Part shown: positions 19,476-34,371 of the stretch, in pieces
Numbering within the stretch: position 1 is the stretch's first letter
How the letters are laid out: every line of letters starts with the position of its first letter
Assembly: GCA_037146775.1 (NCBI GenBank)
Contig: JBAWWL010000001.1
Span: 325,464-389,463, forward strand
DNA from: Candidatus Omnitrophota bacterium
GTDB taxonomy: Bacteria; Omnitrophota; Gorgyraeia; Duberdicusellales; 4484-171
Reading direction: 5' to 3'
Length of the DNA stretch: 64,000 bases
Made by a program: the position numbers and the translations under genes
Notes under the pieces: generated by a model
Database searches by the model: none
What the model was told of the DNA's origin: nothing
The model's input: the letters and a program-made list of their open reading frames with translations, nothing else

Positions 19476-19485
19476 AGAAATACAC

Positions 19486-19758
19486 TTACCCCTTCATTAA
19501 TTCCTGCCGTATTTCTTCTCCTGCCTGTGTTAGTTGGTATATTCTTCCTCTTTTGTTTTGTGGGTTTATGCATATTGCGATGCCTTGTTTTTGGAAGGCT
19601 CTTAGGGTGTCGCTTGTGTGGTTGAGGCTTATTTTTGGGCTGTAGTCTTTGCTTTTTTTGTGCACCTGACAGGGCGCCATTGGCTTTTCGAGGGCTCTTA
19701 GTATTGCTGTCCGTCTTGAACCGCCAAGTATCCACGCGAATAGGTAAACGTCCACCAT
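19486..19758 (-). CDS. winged-helix transcriptional regulator (ArsR-like)
   Basis: 'SLNHTSDTLRAFQKQGIAICINPQNKRGRIYQLTQAGEE' shows an HTH followed by a wing; the overlapping K/R-rich ORF 19457..19735 was judged spurious. Confidence 0.4.
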   Translation of the reverse strand: MVDVYLFAWILGGSRRTAILRALEKPMAPCQVHKKSKDYSPKISLNHTSDTLRAFQKQGIAICINPQNKRGRIYQLTQAGEEIRQELMKG

Positions 19759-19825
19759 CTTTTTTTATATTTATAAATGGCGTGATGGCGTTAATAATTT
19801 TGCACCTTTTTTACACCTTTAGAGC

Positions 19826-19846
19826 GGGTGGTATTTGGGTATAAAG
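19826..19846 (+). promoter_or_regulatory. conserved element-specific promoter/operator motif GGGTGGTATTTGGGTATAAAG
   Basis: lies about 33 nt upstream of the ATG at 19879; the same motif recurs upstream of three minus-strand operons. Confidence 0.45.
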
Positions 19847-19878
19847 TTTTTATATGTCGCCGTCACTACTCCTTAGTC

Positions 19879-20067
19879 ATGGATGAAAGAAAATATTTAC
19901 GCAAAGCCAAAAGGGAAGGATTTGCCACAATAGAAGACTACATCAAAGCCAACCTGCATTATTTGCCAAAAGAAAAAAGAGAACTATTCTGCAACCTAAC
20001 AGGATACAAACCCCAACAACCCAACGAAAACAAAAATTACGGAGGCGAATACAATGGCAAAAATTAA
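19879..20067 (+). CDS. small hypothetical protein (63 aa from the internal ATG; the ORF track starts at GTG 19828 inside the motif)
   Basis: ORF with protein-like composition. Confidence 0.25.
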   Translation: MDERKYLRKAKREGFATIEDYIKANLHYLPKEKRELFCNLTGYKPQQPNENKNYGGEYNGKN

Positions 20068-20203
20068 CATCAGCCTCCGAATCAAACCAGCCCACCACAA
20101 CGCAATCAAACAAGAAATAAAAAAAGGAAAAACACTCACAAGCGTATTCGAAGAAATGCTAGACGAACGATTCCCAGTAACCTCACAACTAATCAGAAAT
20201 TAA
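20054..20203 (+). CDS. small hypothetical protein, 49 aa (below the ORF-track cut-off)
   Basis: ATG preceded by GGAGG at -9; 'MAKINISLRIKPAHHNAIKQEIKKGKTLTSVFEEMLDERF...'. Confidence 0.3.
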   Translation: MAKINISLRIKPAHHNAIKQEIKKGKTLTSVFEEMLDERFPVTSQLIRN

Positions 20204-20256
20204 AGGGGCGGTAGGGGGGCAAAACTATTTATAGCTAAACAATATTAGTAGTCGCT

Positions 20257-20709
20257 ATGAAATGGGTGTGCATATCTTGGGGGTTACTTGTCTTATCTTT
20301 TATGTCCTTTGTGATTAGTGGTTGTTCTTCATCACAGAATTCTTCAGTGTTTTCTAATTCCAGCGGCGTATTAGGATGCACCCAATTCAAAGTTATTGGA
20401 GAGCATAAATATAAGGGTTCAGTTCGTATCGATATAGATTTTTATAACAATTGTTCTAAAAATGTGAGCATATACCTCTTTGATGTGATAGACCAAGAAA
20501 ACAATGTATATAGCTTAAATCATCAAACTTGGGTTTCAGCTGTTAACTGTTTTCCGACAATACTTAATCCAAACCAACATGCAATAGGTCATTTTGGGAC
20601 TTTCTCTAACGAAAGCATATACAGTACAACTGTATCGCTAAACAAATGGTATGTATCATACGATGGAAAAGAAGAAGATTGTTGGCAGATTTATAAAAGG
20701 TTAGGATGA
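20257..20709 (+). CDS. putative lipoprotein, 150 aa
   Basis: signal peptide plus lipobox 'VISGC'. Confidence 0.55.
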   Translation: MKWVCISWGLLVLSFMSFVISGCSSSQNSSVFSNSSGVLGCTQFKVIGEHKYKGSVRIDIDFYNNCSKNVSIYLFDVIDQENNVYSLNHQTWVSAVNCFPTILNPNQHAIGHFGTFSNESIYSTTVSLNKWYVSYDGKEEDCWQIYKRLG

Positions 20710-21065
20710 AAACTTTAACGATATTGTTACTATCAGTATTTTTCTTGTTCTTAGTTATGGGATGTTTCAAAGAGCCTTCATCCGTAGCAACTAAGTGTTT
20801 AGATGGTTGGGGTGAAGATTCCTTTTTTTCCAATACTGATAAAAGTGTCAACAATTCTCCGTGGACTAGTTTTAGCCCGCCTGCCGCTGTAATTGAAAGG
20901 CGTGTGGCATATTTAAAATACTCATGTGATGAGCCCACAAAATATTTTGTTAAAACCAATGACAGTTTTAACAATGTTTCACTTGAAGACTTAAGAAATT
21001 ATGTCAAAGCCTATAATTCTTCGTGCGACGGCTGCTTAGAAGTGTATATCTCTGGGTGTTGTTGA
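20706..21065 (+). CDS. putative lipoprotein, 119 aa
   Basis: signal peptide plus lipobox 'LVMGC'; 4-nt overlap with the upstream gene. Confidence 0.5.
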   Translation: MKTLTILLLSVFFLFLVMGCFKEPSSVATKCLDGWGEDSFFSNTDKSVNNSPWTSFSPPAAVIERRVAYLKYSCDEPTKYFVKTNDSFNNVSLEDLRNYVKAYNSSCDGCLEVYISGCC

Positions 21066-21087
21066 TGTGTCTTTGGTGATTTAGTTT

Positions 21088-21327
21088 ATGGTACAAATAA
21101 TATTAATGCTTGGAGGATTATTGTCCCTGGCTATTGGCGTATATTTAATCTATTTGAGAGAAAATGCCTTAATCTTTGTGGGTTTCAAAAAGAATAGTAT
21201 TCTTCTCAAACACCCTCTTGGTAAATTTATGGCATGGTATGTCTTGTTGAGCATATTAATTTCTCTATTAACTGGGGGAGTAGTGCTTATACTAAAATCA
21301 ATAGGGTTTTTCCAAGTTTTTCCGTAA
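21088..21327 (+). CDS. small membrane protein with two predicted TM helices
   Basis: two hydrophobic stretches, one at each end of the 79-aa product. Confidence 0.4.
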   Translation: MVQIILMLGGLLSLAIGVYLIYLRENALIFVGFKKNSILLKHPLGKFMAWYVLLSILISLLTGGVVLILKSIGFFQVFP

Positions 21328-22638
21328 TTAGGGTGTTTGTGTGGCTTTTTGTTTTTGGTCTACAAGCGCCATCATTTCCAGCATCATTTGTTTTTTCATG
21401 GAAGCAAACTGGTCATTGAGGAATTGCACTTGTTGTTGCAGATGCTGAATCTCTACATCTTTTTGCTTAGCCTCCTCAACAATAACCTGCCTATCCAAAG
21501 GACGCTTACAGTTTTGGCAAACCGTTTCGTCAAAACCCGCTGCCGTATTACAAAAAGCACAAGTCCTAGTGCCTAAACCCTCTTGGCCTTTAGAATCACC
21601 AGCCAAAAGTCCTCGCCTTTGCAATTCCTTCTTAAAAGCCTCATCCTGACTTGAGAGGTCATAGGTTTTTAGCTGGCTTGTGCTCGTCCATCTTGCCGCG
21701 TGTTGGATTTCCATGTCGCTTTCGCCCCTAAGCCTCCTAATCGTAACACCATTACGTTTGAGGCTGTAGCACGTCACGGGCTTAATGATCCCCAGATTCT
21801 TACAAGCAGTCCGAATAAACTTGTTAACGTTATTTGGCTTGAGCTGCTTCAACGCGTTAGTCGTCCCAATATTTACGAAAAGAAACGACTGCTTGTTGGC
21901 CTTGTTTGGGTGAATGCTCAGCCACTTTGCAAGGTAAGGGAAGCTGTCAATACACTGAATAAGGCCAGTTCCTTCCTTGCCATGCTCGCTAATGTAAATC
22001 TTGGCATAATTATCAAACAACTTAACATCCTCAAGCTTCACATAAAGAAGTTCTTGCGGCCTTGCCAAACTCTCAAGCGACAAAGTGAGGAAGGCTTGAA
22101 TCCTTGGGTCTTTACCAAAATAGCCAACGAGGCTTTCAAACTCTTCATGGCTGAACTTGTCCTTTCGCATCTTCTGCCGGCTCTTATCAATCTTTGGTGA
22201 GATGTGGCGCACAGCGTAAGGCACAAGCGTTCCGTCCGGCCTGCCCTTTTCGTCTTTTTCCGGAAACAAAACTTTCCAAACAAGCTTAAGCTCCCTGATA
22301 AAAGTCTCTTTGCTCTGGGGAGTATTATAGACTTGGTGCATTGCCGCCATCAAAGCATCCATATCATCCCTGTCGCACTCCGCAAAATCTTTAACAAAAA
22401 AGTTGCCCGCAAACTTCACACACTGAATAATCCGAAGCCTCCTAATAAAAGACAAATCCCTAGCCCCAAAATGATTAAACAACTTCAAATAATATTCTAG
22501 GTTTGGCTTATGCTTGCAAACATACTTAGAACGCCCATCATTGCCAGCGCAAGCAATGATGTTTCTAAAATCTGCCACAAAATGTTCATACCTTTTTTTG
22601 TTCCCATAAATATCGTCCTCTGCCATCTTACACACCAT
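21328..22638 (-). CDS. tyrosine site-specific recombinase/integrase with a C-terminal zinc-ribbon and coiled-coil extension
   Basis: box I 'LESLARPQELLYVKLEDV', box II 'HAARWTSTSQLKTY' (HxxR...Y); 'CAFCNTAAGFDETVCQNCKRP' zinc ribbon. Confidence 0.8.
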   Translation of the reverse strand: MVCKMAEDDIYGNKKRYEHFVADFRNIIACAGNDGRSKYVCKHKPNLEYYLKLFNHFGARDLSFIRRLRIIQCVKFAGNFFVKDFAECDRDDMDALMAAMHQVYNTPQSKETFIRELKLVWKVLFPEKDEKGRPDGTLVPYAVRHISPKIDKSRQKMRKDKFSHEEFESLVGYFGKDPRIQAFLTLSLESLARPQELLYVKLEDVKLFDNYAKIYISEHGKEGTGLIQCIDSFPYLAKWLSIHPNKANKQSFLFVNIGTTNALKQLKPNNVNKFIRTACKNLGIIKPVTCYSLKRNGVTIRRLRGESDMEIQHAARWTSTSQLKTYDLSSQDEAFKKELQRRGLLAGDSKGQEGLGTRTCAFCNTAAGFDETVCQNCKRPLDRQVIVEEAKQKDVEIQHLQQQVQFLNDQFASMKKQMMLEMMALVDQKQKATQTP

Positions 22639-22690
22639 CCAGACGACACCACACTATATATAGATTGTATTACGCAACAAACCAAGAAAG

Positions 22691-22845
22691 CAATGCGGTA
22701 ACCCCGCATCCAACCGCCAACAATTGGCTGCACAAAAAAATAAGCGCACCCAACCCAAAGTATCATGCGGCCAAAATGCATCCAACCGCCCCCTGATTTC
22801 CTGCGTCAAACAAGCTGACGCATTGAACCCCAGGTATTATGCGGA
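22691..22845. repeat. imperfect ~72-bp tandem repeats upstream of the integrase start (candidate arm-type or att sites)
   Basis: 'gcatccaaccgcc' at 22706 and 22778; '(t)at(c/t)atgcgg' at 22693, 22763 and 22837. Confidence 0.4.
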
Positions 22846-22921
22846 GAGAAGGCACAGCGCTTCCAGTAGCTTGCGAATTGCCTTTTTTGTCGTCTATTTG
22901 TCTATAAAGGGGAGGGAGTAT

Positions 22922-23350
22922 TTAAACTTTTTGGTAGGTTGCGTCATGTGCGTTGTTGATTATTTTTTCTGCCTTTTCTAAGAGGTAGTCTGTGTATAGT
23001 TTTTGGTCTGCCATTTTCCCACTTATCAGTATTTGGATGTCTGTTTTTAGTGTTAGCGCGTCGAGCTGGTCGTTGAGTGCTTTTTGAGTAAGCTTTAGGA
23101 TGTTTGCCTGAAGCATTACGTTTTCTTTTGCCCGCTTGTATTCCTTCCTGTCTTTTTTGCTTGTCTTTGCGTAATCTTGGAGGTGGCTAGATAGGTAGTC
23201 TGTTTCTTTTTTGACCAGTTCTGAGTAGTATTCTGCCCTGTAGATGTCTGTTGCAGTCGCCATGTGATTTCTGCTGAACTCGTCAATGTTATCCCTTTGC
23301 TGAACATTGCGTTCCTTCATTTCCTTAAGCAACGAATTAATATTTCTCAT
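22922..23350 (-). CDS. hypothetical coiled-coil protein, 142 aa
   Basis: ORF with the promoter-like motif at 23384..23404 upstream. Confidence 0.4.
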   Translation of the reverse strand: MRNINSLLKEMKERNVQQRDNIDEFSRNHMATATDIYRAEYYSELVKKETDYLSSHLQDYAKTSKKDRKEYKRAKENVMLQANILKLTQKALNDQLDALTLKTDIQILISGKMADQKLYTDYLLEKAEKIINNAHDATYQKV

Positions 23351-23383
23351 AAAAGAAAAAAACTAAAAAAACAAGAATAAAAA

Positions 23384-23404
23384 CTTTACACCCAAATAAC
23401 ACCC
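23384..23404 (-). promoter_or_regulatory. conserved motif copy (minus strand reads GGGTGTTATTTGGGTGTAAAG)
   Basis: lies 34 nt upstream of the minus-strand start at 23350. Confidence 0.45.
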
Positions 23405-23606
23405 TCACCTCGGGCACTGACTGAGTGTTTTCTGGTAGCTTATGCCATCGAGAGCGTCGCAATAATCCTCTCGGTAGTTTTCGTTGATTTGTGGCATAAA
23501 AAGCAGGAAGTCGCAATTGATAAGAATATTCTTGTTCAATAAAAGGATTTATATACAACTTCTTCCTTAAAGACTACAAATCATAAAGGAGTAAGAACGA
23601 ATAAAG

Positions 23607-25904
23607 ATGCGGCAAGCAAAGGTAACGGTTCAAGTCTTAATATTTCTGGTAATTGCTTCAGCAGCCCAGGCAACATCCGGAGCATTAAGTCCCCTATCTA
23701 ACCAAGAAGGGTTGTTCAGTCTTAGCAACGGTAATTCTTTCAATATCAAGGCAACAGGGCTGAACGGCGACACCTGTGTCTATGAAATAACCTACAGTGG
23801 ATATGTTAAAGAGACTGGTAATCTTGATGTTGGTTGCTCTTACATTTACAAGTATCCGGGAAGCAAGGCGATATTGACTCATAAAGGATTCAATTACCAA
23901 ACAAGCAAGTGCGAATTCACTCTTTTCGAATATACCGGAAGTGCATCACAATGGTCGACTGTATGCAATGAGGACTGTTCAAGCTGCTCAAGCACATGCC
24001 CCTGTACGGGCGGAGCAGTAGTGGACTGCAACGAATGCGAATACACAGGATATGACTGCACAGGAAACACTCTTTACTACTGTACAAGCCAGGGAAACTG
24101 CATTGTGAGGGAATTGGTTGATGTCTGCGGAGAAAACGAAGTCTGTGACCCCACAGATGGAATCTGTGAAGGAGTAGGAACACCCTGCCCTTATGAATGC
24201 TGCAAATACACAAACGCATATCTAGACAAGAACTGTCCCACTGGATACGCCTGCTCAAATTATCAATGCATACAACAGTGCACCAATAATGCTGAGCAGA
24301 AATGTTTTAACGGTAATGTCTATTGGTATGACAGCTGCGGCAACAAAGGAAACCTCTATGACACCTGCGGCTCAGAAGAAACTTGCAACAACGGATATTG
24401 CAGTTCTACCAGGACTACCTGTCCTTACGGATGCTGTGATAGTGACGATAGATATTTTGACAAAAGCTGCTCTTCAGGATATGAATGCAAATCTCAATCT
24501 TGCGAAAAGATATGTACCAGCAAGTACTCCACCAAATGCTACAACAACGATGTTTACTACTATGACAGCTGCGGAAGCAAAGAGACAATAAAGTACGATT
24601 GTAAGATCGATGAGAAATGCAACGGCAATTATTGTGTATCCACAAAATCTGCCTGTCCTCATGAATGCTGTATAGGCAATCAGAATTATTTTGATAAATC
24701 ATGTCCTGGCAAGGACAATTGCGAAAACAACAAGTGCATCGAACATAAAGGCGCTTGTCCTTACGGATGCTGTGACATATTTTCCGAATATGAAGAGAAG
24801 ACCTGTGAAGCGGGTTTTTCCTGCCTTGCAAATAAATGCGAGCAAATGAGTCCTGACAGTATTGAACTTCACAGCAAAATTAAACCTCACGATTCTTTGC
24901 TTTTGACCTTGTTAGACGGGCTTACTGGAAGGGACTATTCCGAACAAAAGTTCAACACTAACCTAAGAAAAGTGTATGAATACGTAAGCAGCATACCTTA
25001 CAGATACGATGACGAAAACAGCGCGGGCTGTATAAAGGGGAGCAAAGATTGCGGAGATGGAAGGCCTGGAATAGATTATTCTCAAGAACCCAAAGAGACT
25101 ATCTCAGAAAACATGGGAGACTGTGAAGACCACGCAATATTATTACAGAGCATGAACGAAGCATTATTCTACAAAACATATGGAACGATTCCTAAAGGCA
25201 GACTCTACCTAGTGTGTGGATGTATAGACTTCAATAATGACGGAGAAGAAGAAGGATGCCACTGCTGGAACATAATTCTGGATGATGACCCCTTATCAAG
25301 CTCAGGTAATACTAATAACCAAGCAATTACACGAGAAGTCCTGGTCGGCGACGTAGGCATCGGAGATATAAAATCAAATCCCCGTAAGATTACTGTGGAA
25401 ATCAAGCCTTATGTTAGCGGCGAGACGGATAAATCAATGACCAGGCAAGCTGTGTTATGGAATAACAAAAAATGGAATGAACTGGAATCAACATGGAAAA
25501 ACCCTTTTGATTTTTATGTTAACCTAAAATATCCCTTTAGCGAGGTATGGTACGTAGCGACAAGTGAAGAATTTTATTACGCACCAGATTTCACGAAAAT
25601 AGGCTGCGAATATGAACAAAGGTTACTATGGTACCTAGGATTAGACAACCTATGCCCTGCTGAAAAAAGCGCATCACCAGGCACAAAAGAAACAGCACCT
25701 CAACCAGAAACTAAAGCAATACAGCCAGAAACTACCAAAGTAACCTGGTGGAAAAAAGTATTAGAAGGCGACACAGAAAATAAAGACAATACCTCTGGGC
25801 AGCCAAAGCAAGAGCAGAAGGCAGATGGAACAAACGAAGCACCTCCACAACAAAAGCCATCCAAAGAAAAGACTTGGTGGAAACCCTGGACATGGCGCTG
25901 GTAA
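23607..25904 (+). CDS. secreted cysteine-rich repeat protein, 765 aa, with C-terminal transglutaminase-like cysteine-protease domain and Trp-rich tail
   Basis: signal peptide; at least four 'CPYGCC...D..C..GY.C....C' modules alternating with 'C...VY.YDSCG...' modules; 'GDCEDHAILL' and 'GCHCWNIILDDD' match the transglutaminase Cys and His-Asp motifs; C-terminal 'WWKPWTWRW'. Confidence 0.7.
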   Translation: MRQAKVTVQVLIFLVIASAAQATSGALSPLSNQEGLFSLSNGNSFNIKATGLNGDTCVYEITYSGYVKETGNLDVGCSYIYKYPGSKAILTHKGFNYQTSKCEFTLFEYTGSASQWSTVCNEDCSSCSSTCPCTGGAVVDCNECEYTGYDCTGNTLYYCTSQGNCIVRELVDVCGENEVCDPTDGICEGVGTPCPYECCKYTNAYLDKNCPTGYACSNYQCIQQCTNNAEQKCFNGNVYWYDSCGNKGNLYDTCGSEETCNNGYCSSTRTTCPYGCCDSDDRYFDKSCSSGYECKSQSCEKICTSKYSTKCYNNDVYYYDSCGSKETIKYDCKIDEKCNGNYCVSTKSACPHECCIGNQNYFDKSCPGKDNCENNKCIEHKGACPYGCCDIFSEYEEKTCEAGFSCLANKCEQMSPDSIELHSKIKPHDSLLLTLLDGLTGRDYSEQKFNTNLRKVYEYVSSIPYRYDDENSAGCIKGSKDCGDGRPGIDYSQEPKETISENMGDCEDHAILLQSMNEALFYKTYGTIPKGRLYLVCGCIDFNNDGEEEGCHCWNIILDDDPLSSSGNTNNQAITREVLVGDVGIGDIKSNPRKITVEIKPYVSGETDKSMTRQAVLWNNKKWNELESTWKNPFDFYVNLKYPFSEVWYVATSEEFYYAPDFTKIGCEYEQRLLWYLGLDNLCPAEKSASPGTKETAPQPETKAIQPETTKVTWWKKVLEGDTENKDNTSGQPKQEQKADGTNEAPPQQKPSKEKTWWKPWTWRW

Positions 25905-25954
25905 ATCCAAAACCTTAAATAGAACACATGTGAATCAAACTTCCTCTAGGAAAG

Positions 25955-26812
25955 ATGGTAATAATAAACTATTGCACCAAATGTGGAAAGAAACTATCGA
26001 AAGAATATGATTTCTGTCCAGAATGCGGGAACCGTATTATTAACATAAAGAAAAAAGAAATATTAGTAACAACTCAGAAACAAACAGAATCATCTAATAA
26101 ATCTATTTGGTGGATAATTATCTTAATCGCAGTATTAATAATATTTGTGATTGTATCGATAGTATGCTTTTTAGTACCATTTAGTTATAGCTCAACAGAG
26201 GCATATTACGAAAAGGAACCATCTGCGTTACAAGAACAATATACTGAAAGTGTAATAAAATATCGACAAGTTCAGTCTGGTTATGATGAGAGTATCAGAC
26301 CTTTAGTAGACGAAGAGGGAAGTTATTATTCTCTCTTATCGCCAGGATTTAATGTGTGTACAGGTTGTTATGTCTCACTTACTATAGAAGCAAATTATCC
26401 TAAAGTTCCATTTAGATACATCATATCAGACCAATTTTTTGAGTGTAATAAAATATTCAGCGGAGAAGATGTTCCCAATGATGTCCAAAATATTGACCTC
26501 AGTCTTGGCACTCTTGATGTGGAGGATAGGGAAATTGGCCCAATCAATACAGATTCAACATTGTGTTTTGCAATTAGCGCAGTTGGTCCTCCAGGAAACA
26601 ACAACCAAAACATATACTCAAAGATTCAAATCAACCAAATAAGAAAGACTCCAATTATGATTTCTGAACCATATGAAACATCTGAGATTAGGAATAGGAC
26701 AGTAACCAACTATAAGGATGTAAAGAAAGAAAGGAATGTTACCAAATATGCTTCGATCTATAAGATTTGGACTAAACAGGTAGATTTCTATTATGTTCTA
26801 GGTCAAGAATGA
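25955..26812 (+). CDS. zinc-ribbon membrane protein, 285 aa
   Basis: N-terminal 'CTKCG...CPECG' zinc ribbon, one TM helix, then an extracytoplasmic domain. Confidence 0.5.
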   Translation: MVIINYCTKCGKKLSKEYDFCPECGNRIINIKKKEILVTTQKQTESSNKSIWWIIILIAVLIIFVIVSIVCFLVPFSYSSTEAYYEKEPSALQEQYTESVIKYRQVQSGYDESIRPLVDEEGSYYSLLSPGFNVCTGCYVSLTIEANYPKVPFRYIISDQFFECNKIFSGEDVPNDVQNIDLSLGTLDVEDREIGPINTDSTLCFAISAVGPPGNNNQNIYSKIQINQIRKTPIMISEPYETSEIRNRTVTNYKDVKKERNVTKYASIYKIWTKQVDFYYVLGQE

Positions 26813-26923
26813 GTAAAATAACTTGGATCATAATGGTTACTTTTTCAATTGTGCAAAAATGTAAGAAATAGTTTTTGCTTAGAAAGAAATCAAAAAAAAG
26901 AATCATATACCCATAAGCCGCCC

Positions 26924-27094
26924 TTATTTTGGGTAGTCTTTGAGCACTTTTTGGTATGAGAGGTCGCTTAGGGCGTAGTAGCTGTCTTTTTCGGTCTCAA
27001 TCATGTGGCCGAGCAAATACTTGATCTCGTTCACATCCTGACTAATTTTCAGCACTGCCTTCCTGCAACGCTCCTCAAGCGTTTCTTCAGCCAT
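26924..27094 (-). CDS. small hypothetical protein, 56 aa (coordinates approximate to within 1 nt)
   Basis: start overlaps the stop of the upstream small ORF, suggesting translational coupling; below the ORF-track cut-off. Confidence 0.25.
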   Translation of the reverse strand: MAEETLEERCRKAVLKISQDVNEIKYLLGHMIETEKDSYYALSDLSYQKVLKDYPK

Positions 27095-27096
27095 TC

Positions 27097-27282
27097 TCAG
27101 CCACCTTTTGAAAGGATGGCATCCATGTAGTGCCTGTGCATAATGTCAGTCCTGATGCTTTCTATGATGAGCCACTGACCATCTCTGCTCAGACGAATCT
27201 TTCTACTCAGCTTCGGCTGCTTTTCCTCAAAAACTTTCACTTCATTACTTACTTTTTCTTTTGCCATTTTCTGTTTCTCCAT
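27097..27282 (-). CDS. small hypothetical protein, 61 aa
   Basis: RBS-like AAGAGG upstream; part of a run of small minus-strand ORFs. Confidence 0.3.
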   Translation of the reverse strand: MEKQKMAKEKVSNEVKVFEEKQPKLSRKIRLSRDGQWLIIESIRTDIMHRHYMDAILSKGG

Positions 27283-27321
27283 CTATCATTTACCTCTTGT
27301 GTATGAGTGGGAGGGGGGCAT

Positions 27322-27522
27322 TTACTGCCGCCCCGTCCTGAATTGACAGCTTTCGCATTTCGAAGGGTCTTTGCATGCCTGACAAATAGCCTTTGCGTCA
27401 AGATGCTTCGGTAATTCCTTAAAGCACCAATCAAGCGCAAAAGTCATCGGCTTGCCAAGATGCCACGCAATCCTTCGCAGCGAGCAACTGTTTTCGTAGC
27501 TTAGCTCCGGGGTATAAGCCAT
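27322..27522 (-). CDS. small Cys-rich protein, 66 aa
   Basis: GAAAGGAG RBS 6 nt upstream; 'CQACKDPSKCESCQ' cluster. Confidence 0.35.
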   Translation of the reverse strand: MAYTPELSYENSCSLRRIAWHLGKPMTFALDWCFKELPKHLDAKAICQACKDPSKCESCQFRTGRQ

Positions 27523-27683
27523 TGATTCTCCTTTCTTTGATTTGACATTTCTGCCAAAAGCTTCCGCCCCTTACTGCTGTCAAAAGCCACGAACTCTAGA
27601 CACTTCTCAGGAATCGCTTTTCGAAACTCCCTCAGCCTAAAATCCACAGTGAAGCCTTTGAAGACAAGCAGCTTCGTAACCAT
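27501..27683 (-). CDS. small hypothetical protein, 60 aa
   Basis: AAAGGAGG RBS 8 nt upstream of the ATG. Confidence 0.35.
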   Translation of the reverse strand: MVTKLLVFKGFTVDFRLREFRKAIPEKCLEFVAFDSSKGRKLLAEMSNQRKENQWLIPRS

Positions 27684-27789
27684 AGCTAAACCTCCTTTCG
27701 TTAAAAAAAACCTATTCAGAAGTAGTAGCGAACAGAAATAAAAGGTTTACACCCCTTTTAATCCTAAGTGATGGGTGGTATTTGAGTGG

Positions 27790-28209
27790 TTAGTAGATGA
27801 GCTTATATTTTTTGTAAGGTTCTATTATTTTTATTGAGATGTACTCTTTGTTCTTAAGTTCTGGGTGTTGATTGAAAAATGATTTCATCGCAATTTTTAA
27901 TGAGGCTACGTGTTTTACCTCATCTTGGCCGTCTATGTTTAATATGAATTCTTGGCGGTCAGGGGGGAAGTATTTTCTGTCTTTAGTGCTTAATGTGGAT
28001 ACTCCCCAGTTGAAACATGTATCCACCAGTTTGACCTTTATTGATCCTGCGGAAAGAATTGGCATGTCTTCATTAATTTTGAAAGGTTTTCTAGGTTCAA
28101 ATTCTATTTCATCATTTTCTTGATATCCTAAGTAATCCATTAATTGTTTGTTGAAGGGTATGTAGTATTCCTGATTTATTTTTACGATGGTTGATATTAT
28201 TTTTCTCAT
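27790..28209 (-). CDS. hypothetical protein, 139 aa from the ATG (the ORF track begins at a TTG at 28236)
   Basis: ORF with balanced composition; an 18-bp perfect palindrome sits just upstream. Confidence 0.45.
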   Translation of the reverse strand: MRKIISTIVKINQEYYIPFNKQLMDYLGYQENDEIEFEPRKPFKINEDMPILSAGSIKVKLVDTCFNWGVSTLSTKDRKYFPPDRQEFILNIDGQDEVKHVASLKIAMKSFFNQHPELKNKEYISIKIIEPYKKYKLIY

Positions 28210-28340
28210 GTTATGCACCCCACATTGTTTAAACAATGTTTTAACAATGAGAAACCATTGCTAGTATAAAAATGTTTCTTTTTTTAAGAAAGTCGGGCCT
28301 TTTTTTAAGTCGTGCCCGGGACTTTTGTGGCGGCGGATTT

Positions 28341-28592
28341 TTAGTCAGTGTTGTATGCTTCAAGGACTCTTCCGCTCAATTCCTGCTTTGCTTCTTCGGA
28401 GAGGAGACTTACGGTTTCGTACCATCTGCCTTCTTTTCCTTTTTGCTTTGGCATGGAAACAAACAGGGAATCATCCTTTGCCGAAACGACTCTGACACCT
28501 TTTATCAGCACTTCTCCGCCAACAATTACGTCGGCAAATGCCTTAAGGTTTGAGCCGTTATCCATTCGATATAGCCTTGCAACTTCCAACAT
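28341..28592 (-). CDS. spoVG: SpoVG-family protein
   Basis: aligns with SpoVG along its length: 'MLEVARLYRM...LKAFADVIVGGEVLIKGVRVVSAKDDSLFVSMPKQKGKEGRWYETVSLLSEEAKQELSGRVLEAY' (GTG alternative start at 28601). Confidence 0.7.
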   Translation of the reverse strand: MLEVARLYRMDNGSNLKAFADVIVGGEVLIKGVRVVSAKDDSLFVSMPKQKGKEGRWYETVSLLSEEAKQELSGRVLEAYNTD

Positions 28593-28607
28593 ACCAACCA
28601 CCCCCTT

Positions 28608-28946
28608 TCACTTTGTGTGGCACCAGCCTTGTGCTTGCGCAATTAGCTGTACTTCCTTTGCTTTCTTTTTCTCCCAGTAGAGGTCTCTGTCAACTTCAAC
28701 AAACTTTATCCGAAGGTCGGATAGTTCGTTGAGGCTGAAGTTTCCCCATTCGGCCATTTCCAAGTCGCCGTTGAGCACCGCAAACCCAAAGAAGATTTCT
28801 TCCGCAGGGTCGTACTCTGTGGCAAACCAGTCACAGCCGCCAATGAAAAAGTGCATACAGATCACTTTTTCCTCTAAAGGCACGTCTTCTCCCGAATACA
28901 TGCGTGGGAGCTTTGCAAGCTCTTCTCTTGTGGGCTTATTCCACAT
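28608..28946 (-). CDS. DUF2958-like small protein (family typical of phages and conjugative elements)
   Basis: 'ELAKLPRMYSGE...HFFIGGCDWFATEYD...FFGFAVL...EMAEWGNFSLNEL' matches the DUF2958 pattern from memory; AAAGGAG RBS. Confidence 0.5.
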   Translation of the reverse strand: MWNKPTREELAKLPRMYSGEDVPLEEKVICMHFFIGGCDWFATEYDPAEEIFFGFAVLNGDLEMAEWGNFSLNELSDLRIKFVEVDRDLYWEKKKAKEVQLIAQAQGWCHTK

Positions 28947-29152
28947 GACAACTCTCCTTTCTCCGGGACATCAACCCAGATTTCTCCGTCAAGGTCAACC
29001 CAATCCAAAACTTCAACAGTTTCGTCTTGCAACTTCCGCTTAGGCATCCACAACACAACCACCCCCTTTCTTTTTTGCGGCAGATACGTAATTCGTCCAT
29101 ATCTGTCTAATTTGTTTTTACAAAGGAGTGGTATCAAGACAAATTAATAAGT

Positions 29153-29173
29153 TTTACACCCAAAAAACACCCG
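29153..29173 (-). promoter_or_regulatory. conserved motif copy (minus strand reads GGGTGTTTTTTGGGTGTAAAA)
   Basis: upstream of the DUF2958-SpoVG minus-strand operon. Confidence 0.45.
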
Positions 29174-29269
29174 AGAAGAAGTGAGGAAGGATTCACGAAA
29201 GAATTGCGTATTGAGGGAGGGGTTCGTTGGGGAAAGGTTTTTATATTGGGTTATTTGTAACTGTAAGAG

Positions 29270-29464
29270 GTGATTGTTATGGATAATGTGTTTGTAAAAT
29301 ATAATGGGAGAATTTTGTTTGTAGGTATTTTGATTCTTATTGCTGCGATAATTTTGGCTACGATTCCTTTAATGATATTTACATCGACGTTTTGGATGTT
29401 GATAGTTATTGGTGGTGGGCTTACCGGTTTTGCATTGAAATTTAGAAAACATAGTAAGAAATAG
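29270..29464 (+). CDS. small membrane protein, 64 aa, two TM helices
   Basis: two hydrophobic helices followed by a basic C-terminus. Confidence 0.35.
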   Translation: MIVMDNVFVKYNGRILFVGILILIAAIILATIPLMIFTSTFWMLIVIGGGLTGFALKFRKHSKK

Positions 29465-29586
29465 TTTAGTGCTTTCGAATTATAAATAACTACGTTATTT
29501 ATGTGCGCCCCTTAATTGTTGAGTCATAGGTCGAAATCTTTAAAGAGGGCGATGCCATGAAGTGAAGTGTTAATGAATTAGATTTT

Positions 29587-29925
29587 TTGAGGTGGATCAT
29601 TATGGGAGAAGGGAAGAATTGGAAGTTTGGTGTTTTCATTTTAGGTATTATCGGGTTGATACTGTTATTTAGTGCAGCAGCCGTATTAGGTGTGATTATA
29701 TTATTTATTGTCATTATGATTGTGCTGATACATGAGGGCTTAAAGAAGTCTGTAAAAGGTGGGCATAAGTCCTCTTCAGATAAAAAAAGGGATAAGCATA
29801 AATCTTCTTCAGATACTAATAAGCAAGATGAATCAGCTGCGTGGCGTCCTACTATATGGCAGCGAATCTATGAAAGGAAACTGTTGGAGAACAATGAGCG
29901 GAAACGTATTGAACTGAAGAAGTAA
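29587..29925 (+). CDS. membrane protein with a TM hairpin and a highly charged C-terminal tail (holin-like topology)
   Basis: hydrophobic stretch of about 40 aa followed by a K/S/D-rich tail. Confidence 0.4.
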   Translation: MRWIIMGEGKNWKFGVFILGIIGLILLFSAAAVLGVIILFIVIMIVLIHEGLKKSVKGGHKSSSDKKRDKHKSSSDTNKQDESAAWRPTIWQRIYERKLLENNERKRIELKK

Positions 29926-29999
29926 GATAGAGAAACCTTGATTCTTCTTTACACTTTTAAAACATAAATACTACGTATTTATTAGGTATCCCCACAGTT

Positions 30000-30362
30000 T
30001 TAAAAGTGTTGTGGCTTCTTGAAGAATATCGTCGGACTGAGGTATTTTGTTCTTTGCTGGTTGTTCCTGTGGTTGTATTTTTCCTTCAGGAGGAGAATTA
30101 TTGGTGCGTGAGCTATTATTTGGGGTTTTCCGGCCTCGTCGTCCATTTCCGCTCTCATCGTTCCCCAGAGCCTTACTGCTGTGCTTGTCGTTGAGAGAGT
30201 GCTGTGCTTAATCTTTCTTGCGAGCTTGCTGATTGGCGTCCATTGCGGATAGTTGGGGAGTTCTTCCAGCATCTTGATTGCTCTCTTTTCTTCTGAAGCT
30301 TCAAGGTGCAGATAGCTGACCTCCTGATGGAAGCTGATTAGTCTTAGTTTTTCTCGTTCCAT
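30000..30362 (-). CDS. hypothetical protein, 120 aa
   Basis: 19-nt overlap with the upstream ATPase gene. Confidence 0.4.
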   Translation of the reverse strand: MEREKLRLISFHQEVSYLHLEASEEKRAIKMLEELPNYPQWTPISKLARKIKHSTLSTTSTAVRLWGTMRAEMDDEAGKPQIIAHAPIILLLKEKYNHRNNQQRTKYLSPTIFFKKPQHF

Positions 30363-31753
30363 TTTTTTACCAGTTCTTTTAGTTCTTCGTCTGTTAGTTT
30401 CCTCGTTGGTAGTGGTGGGGGTGTTTTTATGAGGCAGTTTTTGGCTCTGCCTTTGACTTTGGCGAAGGCTTGGCCTAGCCAGATGTAATCAATGTATCTT
30501 GTCTCGTGCTGTTTGAGGAAGAGGCCGTTTGATACTGTTGACACGTCTTTGAATGTGTTTGCGGCAAAGTGTATTTGGGTTTTGCATTGGAAGGCGTAGT
30601 TTTTGAGTTCGCTGCATTCCTGAGCAAGCGTGACTACTCCCAGTCCTAGTTTTCTTCCTTCTCGATAAATGTTTTGTAGCGTGCCGTCGCCAAACATTCG
30701 TTCTTCTGTTGAAGAGGTCATCATGTTTTGGCTTTCTTCCATTATGAGAAGCATCCTTAGTTTTTCTGTTTCTCCGATGCTGAGGAAGTACAGCATGATG
30801 TAAAGCAACAAGGTTTCTTGGAATAGTATCCTTAGGCTGTTTGGGAGTTCTATGTCCATCTCAAGAATTGTAATTCCGGGTCTCTCAAGCATTTTGGATA
30901 TGTCCATTGGGTTTCTTGAGCCGAACAACTCTTTTGTGTTCGGCCTAAGCATTGAAGACAAAACCCTCATTGCACTGTCTTTCCAAAGTGAAGCCCTGCC
31001 GCGCAGGAATTGGTTATCTACCCTTTTTTTGATGTCTTCAATGTTTGGAAGCAGATGAAGTTTTCCCTGCTGATAGCCTTCCAGCAAATTTTCTGCCTCG
31101 TTCAGTATCAAGCTTCCTGATCCCTGCCCTGAGAGCAAAGATTTCGAGAGAGGCTTTTCAGAAATTATGCCTATCCAACTCAGTGGCGAAACGCCCGGAG
31201 GGGGTGAGAAGAAGAGGTTGTATCTGAACGGCGAAGTTTCCCTCCCTATGGTGTAAACCCGAATGTCTTTTACGAAAGGATAACTTTCTTTGGGCAGTTT
31301 ACACAGACTTGACCATGTCCTGTTCCAATCCACAATCCAAATAGGAACATTCTTCTCTGCCAACTGCACAGCGATATTGTAAGCAAGAGTAGTCTTTCCC
31401 GTTCCAGTAAGGCCAGTACAAAGAATATGATGCCTCAAATCATTCATGGACAGTTTCAGGGGATAAAGCTCCCTATCAGTCCCGTCACCGTTCCTTCCGT
31501 AGCATACCTGTCCGAGCGTTATTTCTCCCAATCCGCACTCTTCTTTGGTTGATGGCGGCAACATCGGCTGGTCTGGCAAAAGACTGTCATTTAAGAGCTT
31601 GTTTGCTGAGAGCTTCAATATTTTTGACAGTCGATCTTTTCGTTCCTCATCACCAATAGCATGAATCAGCTTGAGCTTTTCCGCTTTTTCCCGCCCCCAC
31701 GCAGGTTCGAGACGAAGGATAAGCTCGTCCGTCTGCTCATCAATCTGTATCAC
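30344..31753 (-). CDS. HerA/FtsK-superfamily (DUF87/AAA_10-like) P-loop ATPase, 469 aa
   Basis: 'RHHILCTGLTGTGKTTLAY' Walker A with a preceding conserved His; Walker B-like 'LLIMEESQNM'. Confidence 0.6.
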   Translation of the reverse strand: MIQIDEQTDELILRLEPAWGREKAEKLKLIHAIGDEERKDRLSKILKLSANKLLNDSLLPDQPMLPPSTKEECGLGEITLGQVCYGRNGDGTDRELYPLKLSMNDLRHHILCTGLTGTGKTTLAYNIAVQLAEKNVPIWIVDWNRTWSSLCKLPKESYPFVKDIRVYTIGRETSPFRYNLFFSPPPGVSPLSWIGIISEKPLSKSLLSGQGSGSLILNEAENLLEGYQQGKLHLLPNIEDIKKRVDNQFLRGRASLWKDSAMRVLSSMLRPNTKELFGSRNPMDISKMLERPGITILEMDIELPNSLRILFQETLLLYIMLYFLSIGETEKLRMLLIMEESQNMMTSSTEERMFGDGTLQNIYREGRKLGLGVVTLAQECSELKNYAFQCKTQIHFAANTFKDVSTVSNGLFLKQHETRYIDYIWLGQAFAKVKGRAKNCLIKTPPPLPTRKLTDEELKELVKKWNEKN

Positions 31754-32232
31754 TTCTGCTCACCCAGAATCTTCTTGTCTTGCTGCCCTTCAAGGCGCTT
31801 ATGCCACAGGTCTACAAACATCGAGGTTGGTTCTGACAGGTCTTCCCAAGCCTTAATTTTTTGTTCAAGAAGCAGGTTCTCTGTGCCTTTTTTTTCCTTT
31901 TCCAAAGCCATCCTTCGCCTCTCAATATTCATGTTATAACCAAGCTTAAACGAATAAAGCTGTCCGATCTCTTTAGAAAGCTCGTTCCACTGGTTTTCCA
32001 AAACTGAGACCGTGTTATTGTAAATCTTAAGCCTGTACGTAATACAGAAGGCAGTATTAACGACCTTATCCAAAAGCTTAGCCTCATCCATACCAAGAAT
32101 TGCTTCCAAAGAAAAGCCGCCATCCTGCGATTGAACAGCCTTTTGCGGAGTTGGCTGGTAGCGGGAGGAGTAGAGGTATCTCTCAAACACAGGCGTTCCG
32201 TACAGTGCTGGCTTGTAATTATTGAAGTCCAT
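31750..32232 (-). CDS. hypothetical protein, 160 aa, coupled to the HerA-like ATPase
   Basis: 4-nt overlap with the downstream ATPase; motif copy located upstream. Confidence 0.4.
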   Translation of the reverse strand: MDFNNYKPALYGTPVFERYLYSSRYQPTPQKAVQSQDGGFSLEAILGMDEAKLLDKVVNTAFCITYRLKIYNNTVSVLENQWNELSKEIGQLYSFKLGYNMNIERRRMALEKEKKGTENLLLEQKIKAWEDLSEPTSMFVDLWHKRLEGQQDKKILGEQK

Positions 32233-32267
32233 CTTAACTACACAGTAAAAACAAACCCATTAAAAAA

Positions 32268-32290
32268 GATTACACCCAAATAGCACCCGC
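32268..32290 (-). promoter_or_regulatory. conserved motif copy (minus strand reads GCGGGTGCTATTTGGGTGTAATC)
   Basis: lies 36 nt upstream of the start at 32232. Confidence 0.45.
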
Positions 32291-32639
32291 GTTTTAGGTG
32301 ATGATTGGCTGATAGATAGCTTCAATCCTAAATATGCTTTTCCTATCAAAGAAGGTATACCCATCGTTCTGTATAAGGTGGCCAATGTGGATGCCTCAAG
32401 TGTTTGGAATAGATTTTGTAACGTGCCCTAATGGGTCTTTCCTAAGCCCTTGATTCTTATGATGGTTATGGGTTTTGTGACTTAACCAAGCCCCCTATTC
32501 CTCCCTGATTTTTCCAGTTTTCCTTTATTAGCAGTTATGACGTTTCTCTTATATATGTGTAAAATTTATGCCTTAGCAACACAAGGCGACCCAAAATTTT
32601 TGAGAGCGGTCTGTCTTGACCAGAAAGGAGGTGAATTCT

Positions 32640-32771
32640 ATGGGATGTTTAGGGAAATGCGGCGAGTGTTTGAGGTTGAAGTGTGGGGGCGGCTGGGTTA
32701 CTGACGGGAAAAGGTATTACTGGCTGCCAAAACAAGAGAAACAGAAAATAAAAATGGGAGGTGCAAAATGA
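32640..32771 (+). CDS. Cys-rich micro-protein, 43 aa
   Basis: GGAGGTG RBS 7 nt upstream; 'MGCLGKCGECLRLKCGGGW'. Confidence 0.35.
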   Translation: MGCLGKCGECLRLKCGGGWVTDGKRYYWLPKQEKQKIKMGGAK

Positions 32772-32947
32772 GCGAGAGAATGCCTTGCAGTCATTGTGGA
32801 AAAAGCGGAACTACGCAGTATTCGTGTTGTTTCTACAAATTTTATGGCAGAAAACCTGGGTTTTTTGAGTCCATGGATTACGTGCAGTGTTGTGCTTGTA
32901 AAGGCACAGGCTATGAGCCGAAGGCTGCGCCCCTTTACAACATGTAA
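32768..32947 (+). CDS. Cys-rich zinc-finger-like micro-protein, 59 aa
   Basis: ATGA overlap with the previous ORF; GGAGGTG RBS; 'CSHCGKSG...CCACKGTG' (CxxCxGxG-like). Confidence 0.4.
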   Translation: MSERMPCSHCGKSGTTQYSCCFYKFYGRKPGFFESMDYVQCCACKGTGYEPKAAPLYNM

Positions 32948-33017
32948 AGGGTGGGAAAGTGAGGGGCGGCTAAAGTGTTTTTGGCCGCCTCTCCACTCAC
33001 AAAAAAAGGAATATGCT

Positions 33018-33761
33018 ATGAAAAGAATTAGGCTGTGGAAAAGAGACTACGACATCATCGAAAACTTAAAGAATGGTTTGTTTACAACCGGCCAGCTTGC
33101 CAAACTCTTTTTTAGTTCGCAAAAGAAAGCTGCTGAACGCCTCATATTATTATTCAAAGCCGGACTTGCCGATAGATTTCAGGCACCACTTGATGAGGCA
33201 AAGGGAAAGCCAGAATACGTCTACTGCAAAAAAAACGGGAAAATCCCCAAGAATTACAGCCATATCAAGCACAGCCTTGCAATAACTGATTTTTATGTAT
33301 GGCTCATCGAAAAGACAAAACAAGTTCAAGACATGGTTGCCAAATTTTATTATGGAACAACCCTCGAAGATAAGGGATTGCATGGCGGACTTTTGCTTCC
33401 TGACGCTTTTTTCGTTCTTGAGAAGGCAGACAAAAAGCTCCTGTATTTTGTCGAAATAGATTTGGGAACAGAAACCCTAAGGTCAGGATCAAACTACTCA
33501 TTTGAAGGAAAACTCGATTTATACGCCGACATTTTTGACAGCGAAGAATACAACAAATTCCTCAACCACAAATTCGTAGGCTTCAGACTGCTCTGTGTTT
33601 TTACATCACAAAAAAGGATGCAAAATTTTCTGGGAATCGCAAAAGAAAAGAACTCCGACTTTGTCTTGTGCTCAACATTTGATTCGCTCAAAAATTCTGA
33701 TTTTATCGAAAAAACATGGGCTGACATTTCAGGGAAGAAAGTTGGTTTGTCAGGAAAATAA
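33018..33761 (+). CDS. replication-relaxation-family protein (plasmid/ICE-associated), 247 aa from Met 33018
   Basis: 'FTTGQLAKLFF...AAERLILLFKAGLADR', 'HSLAITDFYVWL', 'GGLLLPDAFFVL', 'YFVEIDLGTE' match the family pattern; the ORF-track start at 32796 was rejected. Confidence 0.55.
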   Translation: MKRIRLWKRDYDIIENLKNGLFTTGQLAKLFFSSQKKAAERLILLFKAGLADRFQAPLDEAKGKPEYVYCKKNGKIPKNYSHIKHSLAITDFYVWLIEKTKQVQDMVAKFYYGTTLEDKGLHGGLLLPDAFFVLEKADKKLLYFVEIDLGTETLRSGSNYSFEGKLDLYADIFDSEEYNKFLNHKFVGFRLLCVFTSQKRMQNFLGIAKEKNSDFVLCSTFDSLKNSDFIEKTWADISGKKVGLSGK

Positions 33762-33779
33762 ATTTTAGAGGATAGGGTA

Positions 33780-34337
33780 GTGAAAATTCTTCCAACCCAA
33801 AAAGGATACAACATAGTTTACGCAGACCCGCCTTGGCGTTACGGCGCTCAGGGTAGCTCTTCTTGGATGGGGCGAGGAGCGAAAAAGCACTATCCGACTA
33901 TGAATTTGGAAGACATAAAGAACCTGAAAATTCCGTGCGGCAAAGATTGCGTACTTTTCTTATGGGTAGTTTTTCCACTACTAAAAGAAGGATTACAAGT
34001 AATGGACGCATGGGGCTTCAAATACAAAACCGTAGCCTTCGTCTGGATTAAGCTAAACAAGAAAAACAAAGAACCATTCTGCGGCATGGGCTCATGGACA
34101 AGGTCAAACGCAGAAATTTGCCTGCTTGGAACAAGAGGAAAAAACAAGCGAACGAGTGCCAAAGTAAGACAAGTAATCATTTCGGAAAGAAGGGAACACT
34201 CACGAAAGCCCGACGAAGTACGAGACAGAATAATTCAACTCATGGGAGATAATCCAAGAATAGAACTCTTTGCTAGACAGAAAAATGAAGGTTGGGATGT
34301 TTGGGGAAACGAAGTAGACAAATTCGGGACGAATTAA
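33780..34337 (+). CDS. MT-A70-family N6-adenine DNA methyltransferase (orphan)
   Basis: 'YADPPWRY' DPPW motif; 'HSRKPDE...ELFARQKNEGWDVWGNE'. Confidence 0.8.
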   Translation: MKILPTQKGYNIVYADPPWRYGAQGSSSWMGRGAKKHYPTMNLEDIKNLKIPCGKDCVLFLWVVFPLLKEGLQVMDAWGFKYKTVAFVWIKLNKKNKEPFCGMGSWTRSNAEICLLGTRGKNKRTSAKVRQVIISERREHSRKPDEVRDRIIQLMGDNPRIELFARQKNEGWDVWGNEVDKFGTN

Positions 34338-34340
34338 GCA

Positions 34341-34371
34341 GGGGATTAGGTTGGGGATTTGGTCGGGGATT
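34341..34371. repeat. three direct GGGGATT repeats spaced 12 bp apart (iteron or operator-like)
   Basis: 'GGGGATTaggttGGGGATTtggtcGGGGATT'. Confidence 0.5.

Follow-up and report, generated by a model that had tools for sequence, protein, structure and literature searches.

A tandem-box promoter–operator cassette probably unites the backbone operons of an integrative element in Candidatus Omnitrophota

A recurrent cassette precedes the backbone operons of an integrative element in a 64,000-nucleotide stretch (the window) of contig JBAWWL010000001.1, part of a metagenome-assembled genome labelled Candidatus Omnitrophota. The element occupies about 20 kb (19.5–39.6 kb of the window), and its overall gene order recurs in other metagenomes. 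We propose, with a probability of about 0.65, that the cassette is the promoter–operator site defining a regulon of the element and that it is read by one small element-encoded protein, a proposal that comes from sequence comparison. Each copy of the GGGTG motif reported by a first-pass annotation would form the upstream half of a promoter–operator cassette of about 55 bp, shared by six transcription units and consisting of two RRGTG boxes 11 bp apart, YAAA, a T-rich or TAT box and a pyrimidine-rich ACTAC or ACTCCTT segment. Spaced by one helical turn, the boxes would lie on the same DNA face, where a small DNA-binding protein encoded by one of a divergent pair of genes at 19.5–20.2 kb could occupy both in tandem. 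Its binding would set the access of RNA polymerase at all backbone promoters together (those of the integrase, the HerA-type ATPase, DUF2958/SpoVG, the small-gene operons and the regulators themselves), and the backbone would then form one autoregulated regulon.

Allowing up to three mismatches, GGGTGNTATTTGGGTGTAAA matches the window exactly four times, with 0–1 mismatch each and an expectation of 0.01 from shuffled sequence, at 19826–19845 (+), 23404–23385 (−), 29172–29153 (−) and 32288–32269 (−). The sequences quoted by the first-pass annotation were therefore correct, as were its start coordinates apart from two slight offsets (32290 for 32288 and 29173 for 29172). Counted from the end of the 21-mer, the start codon follows after 32 nt (ATG 19879), 33 nt (ATG 23350) and 35 nt (ATG 32232), in keeping with the 33–36 nt originally given for three copies, and the flanks of the 29172 copy bear out its long leader before ATG 29047. 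A repeat search of the window independently recovered the motif family, as repeat D1. A position weight matrix (PWM) built from related elements alone, with no window sequence, found five window sites scoring at least 16 bits, compared with a mean of 0.06 such sites in 300 whole-sequence shuffles, and all five lie at 19.8–32.3 kb. Our analysis added two degenerate copies and one box-only copy, which also fall in this interval, so the proposed restriction to the mobile element holds within the 64-kb window. Every copy except the box-only one is upstream of the first gene of an operon and in the same orientation as that gene.

Cassette A (GGGTGGTATTTGGGTATAAAG, 19826..19846, +; 26.5 bits under the window-free PWM) precedes an operon that starts at ATG 19879 and encodes a 62-aa protein, a 49-aa ribbon-helix-helix (RHH)-like protein and small membrane or secreted proteins; orthologous copies are present in the related loci L007 (18127−), L023 (965−) and L009 (17838−). 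Diverging from it is cassette E (AGGTGTAAAAAAGGTGCAAAAT, 19797..19818, −), which the first-pass annotation had overlooked; it is degenerate, keeps the 11-bp box period and lies 39 nt before the ATG (19758) of a winged helix-turn-helix (wHTH) gene, and its L007 orthologue is a full copy, GGGTGTTAATTGGGTGCAAAAT. Cassette B (GGGTGTTATTTGGGTGTAAAG, 23384..23404, −) precedes a 142-aa gene (ATG 23350) and the tyrosine integrase. Cassette D (GGGTGCTATTTGGGTGTAATC, 32268..32288, −) precedes a 160-aa gene (ATG 32232), the DUF87/HerA-type ATPase and a 120-aa wHTH-like protein. The other two cassettes have long leaders. Cassette C (GGGTGTTTTTTGGGTGTAAAA, 29152..29172, −) heads an operon composed of a small open reading frame (ORF) at 29047, DUF2958, SpoVG and a 139-aa protein, and cassette F (AGGATTAAAAGGGGTGTAAAC, 27745..27765, −), with a degenerate distal box, stands before a strong Shine–Dalgarno sequence (SD) and four genes of 56–66 aa each from ATG 27683. 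The partial copy noticed earlier at 27744–27755 is the proximal box of cassette F, whose L007 orthologue (13073+) is perfect. A plus-strand copy had been placed near 27774; it is the box-only copy (GGGTGGTATTTGAGTGGTTA, 27773..27792, +), which diverges from cassette F and is without the TAAA and T-rich part. No plus-strand gene follows it, and it could be the remnant of a promoter or an auxiliary site for binding.

The cassette is conserved at syntenic, orthologous promoters of related elements from other metagenomes, whose contigs we fetched through homologues of the window ATPase (76–53% identity) or of the wHTH protein and then scanned. L007 has six copies with 0–4 mismatches before orthologues of the same operons, and these are full where the window copies are degenerate. 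Across the family, 32 instances align without gaps over the cassette, giving the consensus RRGTG-N6-RRGTG-YAAA-nCTTtTAw followed by the pyrimidine-rich ACTAC/ACTCCTT segment; GTG, AA and T25 hardly vary, and the box period is 11 bp throughout. The pattern expected of a regulon, the same site in several backbone promoters of an element that encodes the regulator, is seen in the six window cassettes, in the four to six PWM matches at each of the better-sampled related loci (L007, L009, L011, L024 and L025) and in element-specific variants of the boxes, the binding itself being something that we infer. An exact-pattern scan of IMG/VR returned four single matches, similar to a rough estimate of the number expected by chance. 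In L011 (12363–12450) and L012 (2373–2460), two tandem cassettes 44–53 bp apart precede the same operon, in the ArdA/DUF2958 region.

Between elements, the distal and proximal boxes differ in their first two bases, and they do so in concert. Variants occur in L009, L011, L012, L013, L017–L021 and L023–L025, and three classes can be distinguished: GG; AA or GA, with AAGTG or GAGTG boxes (L009, L011, L012, L020 and L021); and CA, with CAGTG boxes (L013, L017, L018, L024 and L025). The mean mismatch between distal and proximal boxes was 0.54, compared with 1.19 when partners were shuffled; not one shuffle out of 20,000 reached so low a value, in a test that treats related promoters as independent. 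Because separate readers of a −35 and a −10 element would not give such a pattern, we infer that a single protein occupies the two boxes as a tandem pair, from one face of the helix. Box specificity differs between elements in related hosts, and the reader is therefore probably encoded by the element. Together with confinement to the element and conservation at orthologous promoters, this joint change supports the original suggestion of an element-encoded factor or a dedicated promoter class.

The candidate readers are two divergent genes that are conserved side by side in the family and whose promoters both carry boxes. One encodes a 90-aa wHTH protein (19486..19758, −; recognition helix at residues 45–58, SLNHTSD...) and the other, in operon A, the 49-aa RHH-like protein (MAKINISLRIKP...; 20054..20203, +). 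The AlphaFold2 model of the 90-aa protein (predicted local distance difference test score, 93) is a winged helix, and Foldseek matched it to TubR, Fur, CadC, PadR, HxlR and MarR with about equal scores. The top single match, TubR (3m8e, template-modelling (TM) score 0.69), was no better than many other wHTH regulators, and CadC, of the ArsR family, came third among many equally scoring wHTH folds. Pfam returned HxlR only, below its cut-off (E = 0.035, 14.4 bits versus 20.8); the ArsR-type HTH profile gave no match and does not place the protein in ArsR/SmtB. The Pfam PadR profile likewise missed the window protein and passed its 160-aa L011 orthologue (30.3 bits versus 27), and matches to MarR and PadR among PDB profiles were weak (E 0.014–0.9). 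The first-pass annotation had named an 'ArsR-like' wHTH protein as the possible factor; the protein stands as one of two good candidates, but the family label was too specific for a generic winged helix.

His47, which lies in the first turn of the recognition helix, is restricted to four proteins, those of the GGGTG clade. Other wHTH orthologues have Asn at this position, save three distant or partial ones (P0107, P0108 and P0111), and the boxes of those Asn47 elements that we examined mostly have A at position 2. This covariation analysis is small, the wHTH alignment having found only one locus in genome contigs and five in metagenome contigs. The 49-aa protein is conserved in L007, L023, L009, L018 and L024; KINISLRIKP and two helical segments are kept in these five orthologues, and its RHH assignment is a sequence pattern that no Pfam profile matched. 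Its Lys11 changes to Gln or His in parallel with the His47/Asn change of the wHTH protein, and because both correlations rest on one evolutionary event they cannot separate the candidates. Some wHTH orthologues (L011 19944–20426; P0063, P0064 and P0076) are 148–160 aa long and contain a second recognition helix and wing; such a tandem duplication within one polypeptide fits head-to-tail binding of direct repeats. Other element proteins are poorer candidates. The 120-aa wHTH-like protein (30000..30362, −), conserved after the DUF87/HerA ATPase, is disfavoured, its helix being almost identical in the window and L011 (one conservative V/I change) while the boxes differ, and SpoVG and the AbrB-like 139-aa protein were rejected since several elements have the cassette but lack them.

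How RNA polymerase would recognize the cassette is less clear-cut. No cassette passed a sigma-70 consensus scan of 19000–33000, and none has a −35 hexamer with four of six matches, whereas the host promoters before hrcA and before an HspR-like ORF and clpB are canonical (TTGACT-17-TAATAT and TTGACA-17-TATACA). The earlier description of a GGGTG repeat with an 11-bp period followed by an AT-rich −10-like box was accurate for the repeat; for the box there are several −10 candidates, and TAAA is a possible −10. Three such candidates can be aligned: TG-Y-AAAnnT at positions 14–22, TATnnn at 23–30 and TAC(T/C)nn at 38–46. Compared with an extended −10 element, T14, G15 and A18 are nearly invariant over the 32 instances and T22 is frequent, with position −12 being A rather than T. 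The Bacteroidota −33/−7 type (TAnnTTTG) does not describe the motif, which has TATTTG in a host that uses TTGACA/TATAAT and SDs, nor does the sigma-54 −24/−12 type, because GGGTG-N6-GGGTG has no GC element and a different spacing. Sigma-28 and sigma-B were rejected by inspection, the sigma-28-like TAAAGTTT...GCCG occurring in copy A only and with the wrong spacing. Because the boxes abut or overlap AT-rich −10-like elements and a sigma-70 −35 is lacking, a bound factor is probably needed for promoter recognition.

The position of the start codon adds a further constraint. In 19 instances from four non-homologous gene groups (A, B, D and E), an ATG lies at aligned positions 50–60, about 33–36 nt after the boxes, and the first genes of these groups have conserved N termini and no SD. 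Their leaders would be very short or absent: short SD-less leaders appear the better description of these operons, at fair confidence, and near-leaderless starts are only somewhat less likely. A strict leaderless model, with TACTnn as the −10 and the boxes at about −41 and −52, is weakened by the pairing of the ACTAC/ACTCCTT segment with the SD in leadered cassettes. Several host genes (55067, 58475 and 60001) have a perfect TATAAT 5–14 nt before the ATG and no SD, an indication that mRNAs with a very short leader, or with none, are common in this Omnitrophota genome.

A second, post-transcriptional layer of control is likely in the long-leader operons. Cassettes of the C and F types are followed by a strong SD, that of the first ORF, to which their pyrimidine-rich segment (positions 35–50) is complementary. 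In the cassette C leader (29058..29132, −), a fold of −25.8 kcal/mol (z = −2.1) joins the anti-SD-like arm ACCACUCCUUU (29132..29122) to AAAGGGGGUGG (29068..29058), the SD arm of the ORF at 29047. The pairing is kept across elements while the arms themselves differ in a compensating manner (CCAC/GUGG, UUCAC/GUGAA, CACUUCUC/GAGAAGUG and GCCAC/GUGGC), and cognate arms pair better than non-cognate ones (−13.8 versus −12.1 kcal/mol; permutation p = 0.008). The leaders (29058–29132 (−) and, for cassette F, 27690–27730 (−)) mimic the 3′ tail of 16S rRNA, as in UUCACUCCUUAAUC of L011. By pairing with and sequestering the downstream SD, this anti-SD segment would probably act as a translational attenuator. 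The pairing also suggests that the pyrimidine-rich segment is transcribed; transcription would then begin at most about 20 nt beyond the proximal box, and the boxes would lie within the polymerase footprint. The small ORF of the cassette C operon (28874–29047, −; ...EVLDWVDLDGEIWVDVPEKGE...) has orthologues in L007, L009 and L011 and ends at or overlaps the DUF2958 start; in the window the overlap is 72 nt, in another frame. Translational coupling, a frameshift or a gene that was split in error could underlie this arrangement.

Several points weigh against a single tandem-binding, element-encoded reader. The joint-variation test counts related promoters as independent; the distal box is degenerate in several related promoters, so tandem binding is perhaps not obligatory; and the covariation of regulator residues with boxes amounts to essentially one evolutionary event and is equally good for both candidates (H/N in the wHTH protein, K/Q or H in the RHH-like one). 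Neither candidate accounts for A/G versus C at box position 1, the three −10 candidates each fit only part of the data, and restriction to the element could be tested in the 64-kb window and not in the whole genome. Moreover, MarR/PadR-type winged-helix proteins are as a rule repressors with palindromic sites. As to the sign of control, the poor sigma-70 core and strict geometry resemble the boxes of master activators (AcaCD/SetCD, lambda CII and Pho boxes), whereas the fold family, gene position and overlap with the core promoter resemble those of global repressors (KorA and omega). We slightly and tentatively favour positive control or a specificity factor; a global repressor is almost as likely.

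The alternative that survives best, although we consider it somewhat unlikely, is in effect a sub-case of the regulon proposed here with the opposite sign. It takes the boxes as operators of a global autoregulated repressor, the wHTH protein of MarR/PadR type, that overlap weak sigma-70 cores (an extended −10-like TG-Y-AAAnnT or GTGnTA-17-TATnnn); the repressor would silence the integrated element, and derepression would lead to excision and transfer. Most proteins of this fold family are repressors, and the wHTH gene has the expected setting, at the edge of the backbone, divergent from an operon and with boxes in its own promoter. The start implied by leader pairing puts the boxes inside the polymerase footprint, the invariant T14, G15 and A18 and the frequent T22 match key extended −10 positions, and a box-only auxiliary site lies beside cassette F. 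However, the cores are poor (no 4/6 −35 hexamer, and A at −12), although derepressed promoters of mobile elements are usually strong; the strict orientation and the conservation of YAAA and T25 go beyond a repeated box; and master repressors, with the exception of KorA/KorB, usually act at one switch region and not at six or more promoters.

We regard it as improbable that an alternative sigma factor or a specificity subunit of RNA polymerase, encoded by host or element, reads the motif directly as a promoter class that needs no separate transcription factor, for instance with GTGTAAA as a −35 of the extracytoplasmic function (ECF) type and CGT as the −10. The cassette does lack a sigma-70 −35, TGTAAA(C) resembles the ECF −35 elements TGAAAC and TGTAAC, and CGT follows 15–16 nt downstream in about one-third of instances (A and C types). 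Yet CGT is missing from the B and E types and most D-type cassettes, the E type has a perfect TATAAAT, no sigma-70 r2 or r4 domain was reported in any element of the family, and the hosts span several phyla. In addition, the distal box both repeats and co-varies with the proximal one, which distinct −35 and −10 readers would not produce. A bolder variant, for which we see little prospect, is a sigma-70-independent promoter class to which a small element-encoded protein redirects the polymerase, a case of sigma appropriation in a non-phage integrative element. Given its likeness to an archaeal B recognition element (BRE) and TATA box with near-leaderless starts, the cassette might even work in both bacteria and archaea; such dual function, if true, would account for family members in archaeal-labelled bins (Aenigmatarchaeota, Hodarchaeales and 'archaeon').

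It is very improbable that the boxes serve DNA transactions and not transcription, as arm-type sites of the integrase, iterons or a wHTH-bound centromere like TubR/tubC. TubR is the best single fold match of the wHTH protein (TM 0.69) and coats arrays of 12-bp direct repeats, and integrases bind direct-repeat arm sites; but the match is no better than those to many other wHTH regulators, and the copies are spread over 12.5 kb, one per operon start, each in the orientation of its gene and joined to a common AT-rich and leader sequence. They form no array and do not cluster at the element ends, and the window encodes neither TubZ nor ParA as a partner. Least credible are archaeal-type promoters, with YAAA-nn-TTTTAT as BRE and TATA box and a leaderless ATG about 24 nt downstream, indicating archaeal origin or a cross-domain host range: sequence and spacing do resemble BRE/TATA and leaderless starts, and three members (P0028, P0054 and P0111) come from archaeal-labelled bins, but the window is unambiguously bacterial (hrcA-grpE-dnaK-dnaJ, clpB with a CIRCE element, miaA/miaB, SPOR, amidase and sigma-70 promoters) and the motif does not qualify as BRE/TATA, other members lie on long bacterial-labelled contigs (Planctomycetia and Aureabacteria), the archaeal-labelled contigs L012 and L013 hold element-type genes only, and leader pairing puts the start upstream of the leaderless position.

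The block of the element that carries the motif has mixed gene orientation and comprises the 90-aa wHTH gene, small proteins, the tyrosine integrase (21328..22626, −; downstream gene of cassette B; Pfam Phage_integrase, 9.5e-10; gene call in L001), a 765-aa Cys-rich secreted protein, DUF2958, SpoVG and the DUF87/HerA-FtsK-type ATPase (30344..31753, −), which was the family marker for finding relatives. The right half (32537..39619, +) carries no cassette, gave no PWM match, and is syntenic in L007, L009 and L020. It encodes small SD-led ORFs, Replic_Relax, an MT-A70 methylase, a 777-aa ATPase, a 206-aa protein, a MerR-like ORF and a large serine recombinase, which adjoins host miaB at the right end of the element. 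The element is probably mobilisable. Searches of IMG/VR viral contigs with the ATPase and the ATPase alignment found no relatives and PHROGs found no phage structural proteins, so it is not a recognisable prophage. Megablast against a plasmid database gave no match, an Rfam scan of 18–41 kb returned nothing relevant and no att-type direct repeats were found flanking the element. The 765-aa secreted protein (23607–25904) has repeated Cys-rich modules, a weak transglutaminase-like core and a Trp/Lys-rich C terminus, and may be an adhesin; its gene, which has internal DNA repeats (24300/24534 and 24420/24756), is transcribed within the element from an SD-led promoter of its own.

Convergent restriction or defence genes begin within 8–30 nt after the wHTH gene in six independent elements, among them type I restriction–modification subunits, YgjP-like, DUF6119, Z1/HNH and Vsr/Dcm genes (window 1–19475; L007 19035–20203; L009 18760–21413; L011 20454–21401; L023 1333–3226; L025 7892–17886). 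Either these are defence cargo beyond the backbone, with the left border left of 19486, or the element targets defence islands. The other flanking genes are bacterial (hrcA-grpE-dnaK-dnaJ, clpB, hflX, amidase, miaA/miaB and a SPOR/TPR protein), and about half of the host genes have SDs. A CIRCE-like inverted repeat (TTAGCACTC-N9-AAGTGCTAA, 44529–44555) lies before clpB, and a second, weaker repeat follows the hrcA promoter (47697–47725); a small MerR/HspR-like ORF (about 44225–44510) also precedes clpB, an arrangement of ordinary host heat-shock regulation. The miaB-like gene contains two in-frame copies of a 34-nt low-complexity repeat (ACTCAATACTCA..., 39786–39819 and 40290–40323) encoding LNT-rich insertions. 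As for the three members in bins labelled 'archaeon', Aenigmatarchaeota and Hodarchaeales (P0028, P0054 and P0111), the two contigs examined, those of P0054 and P0028, carry element-type genes only, and other members reside on long contigs with bacterial labels (Planctomycetia and Aureabacteria); the archaeal labels may be binning errors.

Regulons of this general kind are known from other mobile elements. The AcaCD boxes of IncA/C plasmids and the SetCD boxes of SXT/R391 integrative and conjugative elements define master-activator regulons. As in those systems, one conserved box is found here at a fixed position in many backbone promoters with a poor −35, including those of integration/excision and transfer operons; AcaCD and SetCD, however, are FlhDC-type heteromers, a type of protein that we did not see in the present element, and their boxes are not tandem 5-mers. 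The lambda CII promoters PRE, PI and PaQ share with the cassette a short direct repeat with a 6-bp spacer (TTGC-N6-TTGC), a poor −35 and recurrence at several promoters including that of the integrase, but the sequence differs and the period is 10 bp for CII, a helix-turn-helix tetramer, versus 11 bp here. Direct repeats with an 11-bp period are also the hallmark of Pho boxes, at which winged-helix domains of the PhoB/OmpR family bind head-to-tail and replace the −35; PhoB-type readers have receiver domains, whereas the candidate here is a stand-alone 90-aa wHTH protein of MarR/PadR-like topology. Among global repressors of plasmid backbones, KorA/KorB (IncP) and the RHH repressor omega (inc18) are, like the candidates here, small, autoregulated and element-encoded, with sites in several backbone promoters. 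Kor operators, however, are palindromes, and omega reads contiguous, non-palindromic 7-bp heptads in arrays of 7–10, in contrast to two 5-mers 11 bp apart. Finally, TubR, the wHTH protein of type III plasmid partition, recognizes direct repeats spaced by roughly one helical turn and controls its own operon; TubR (3m8e) is the closest solved fold to the 90-aa protein, a match that is not specific, and the centromere array and TubZ partner of that system are both absent here.

A mobile-element backbone regulon is thus known in principle, whereas this element family, its cassette and its regulators have not previously been described, and a literature search found no published account of them. Hardly any work exists on the mobile elements of Omnitrophota, Planctomycetes and other uncultivated bacteria. 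The analysis defines one family of them, integrative elements of about 20 kb that encode a tyrosine integrase, optionally accompanied by a serine recombinase, as well as two HerA/FtsK-type ATPases, Replic_Relax and anti-restriction genes, and that always adjoin restriction or defence genes. It also supplies a putative regulatory code for the family, in the form of a scannable cassette with three specificity variants and two candidate readers, which could be used to delimit such elements in metagenomes. The cassettes may in addition offer ready-made, probably regulator-dependent promoters for genetic tools in bacteria of the PVC group (Planctomycetes–Verrucomicrobia–Chlamydiae and relatives).

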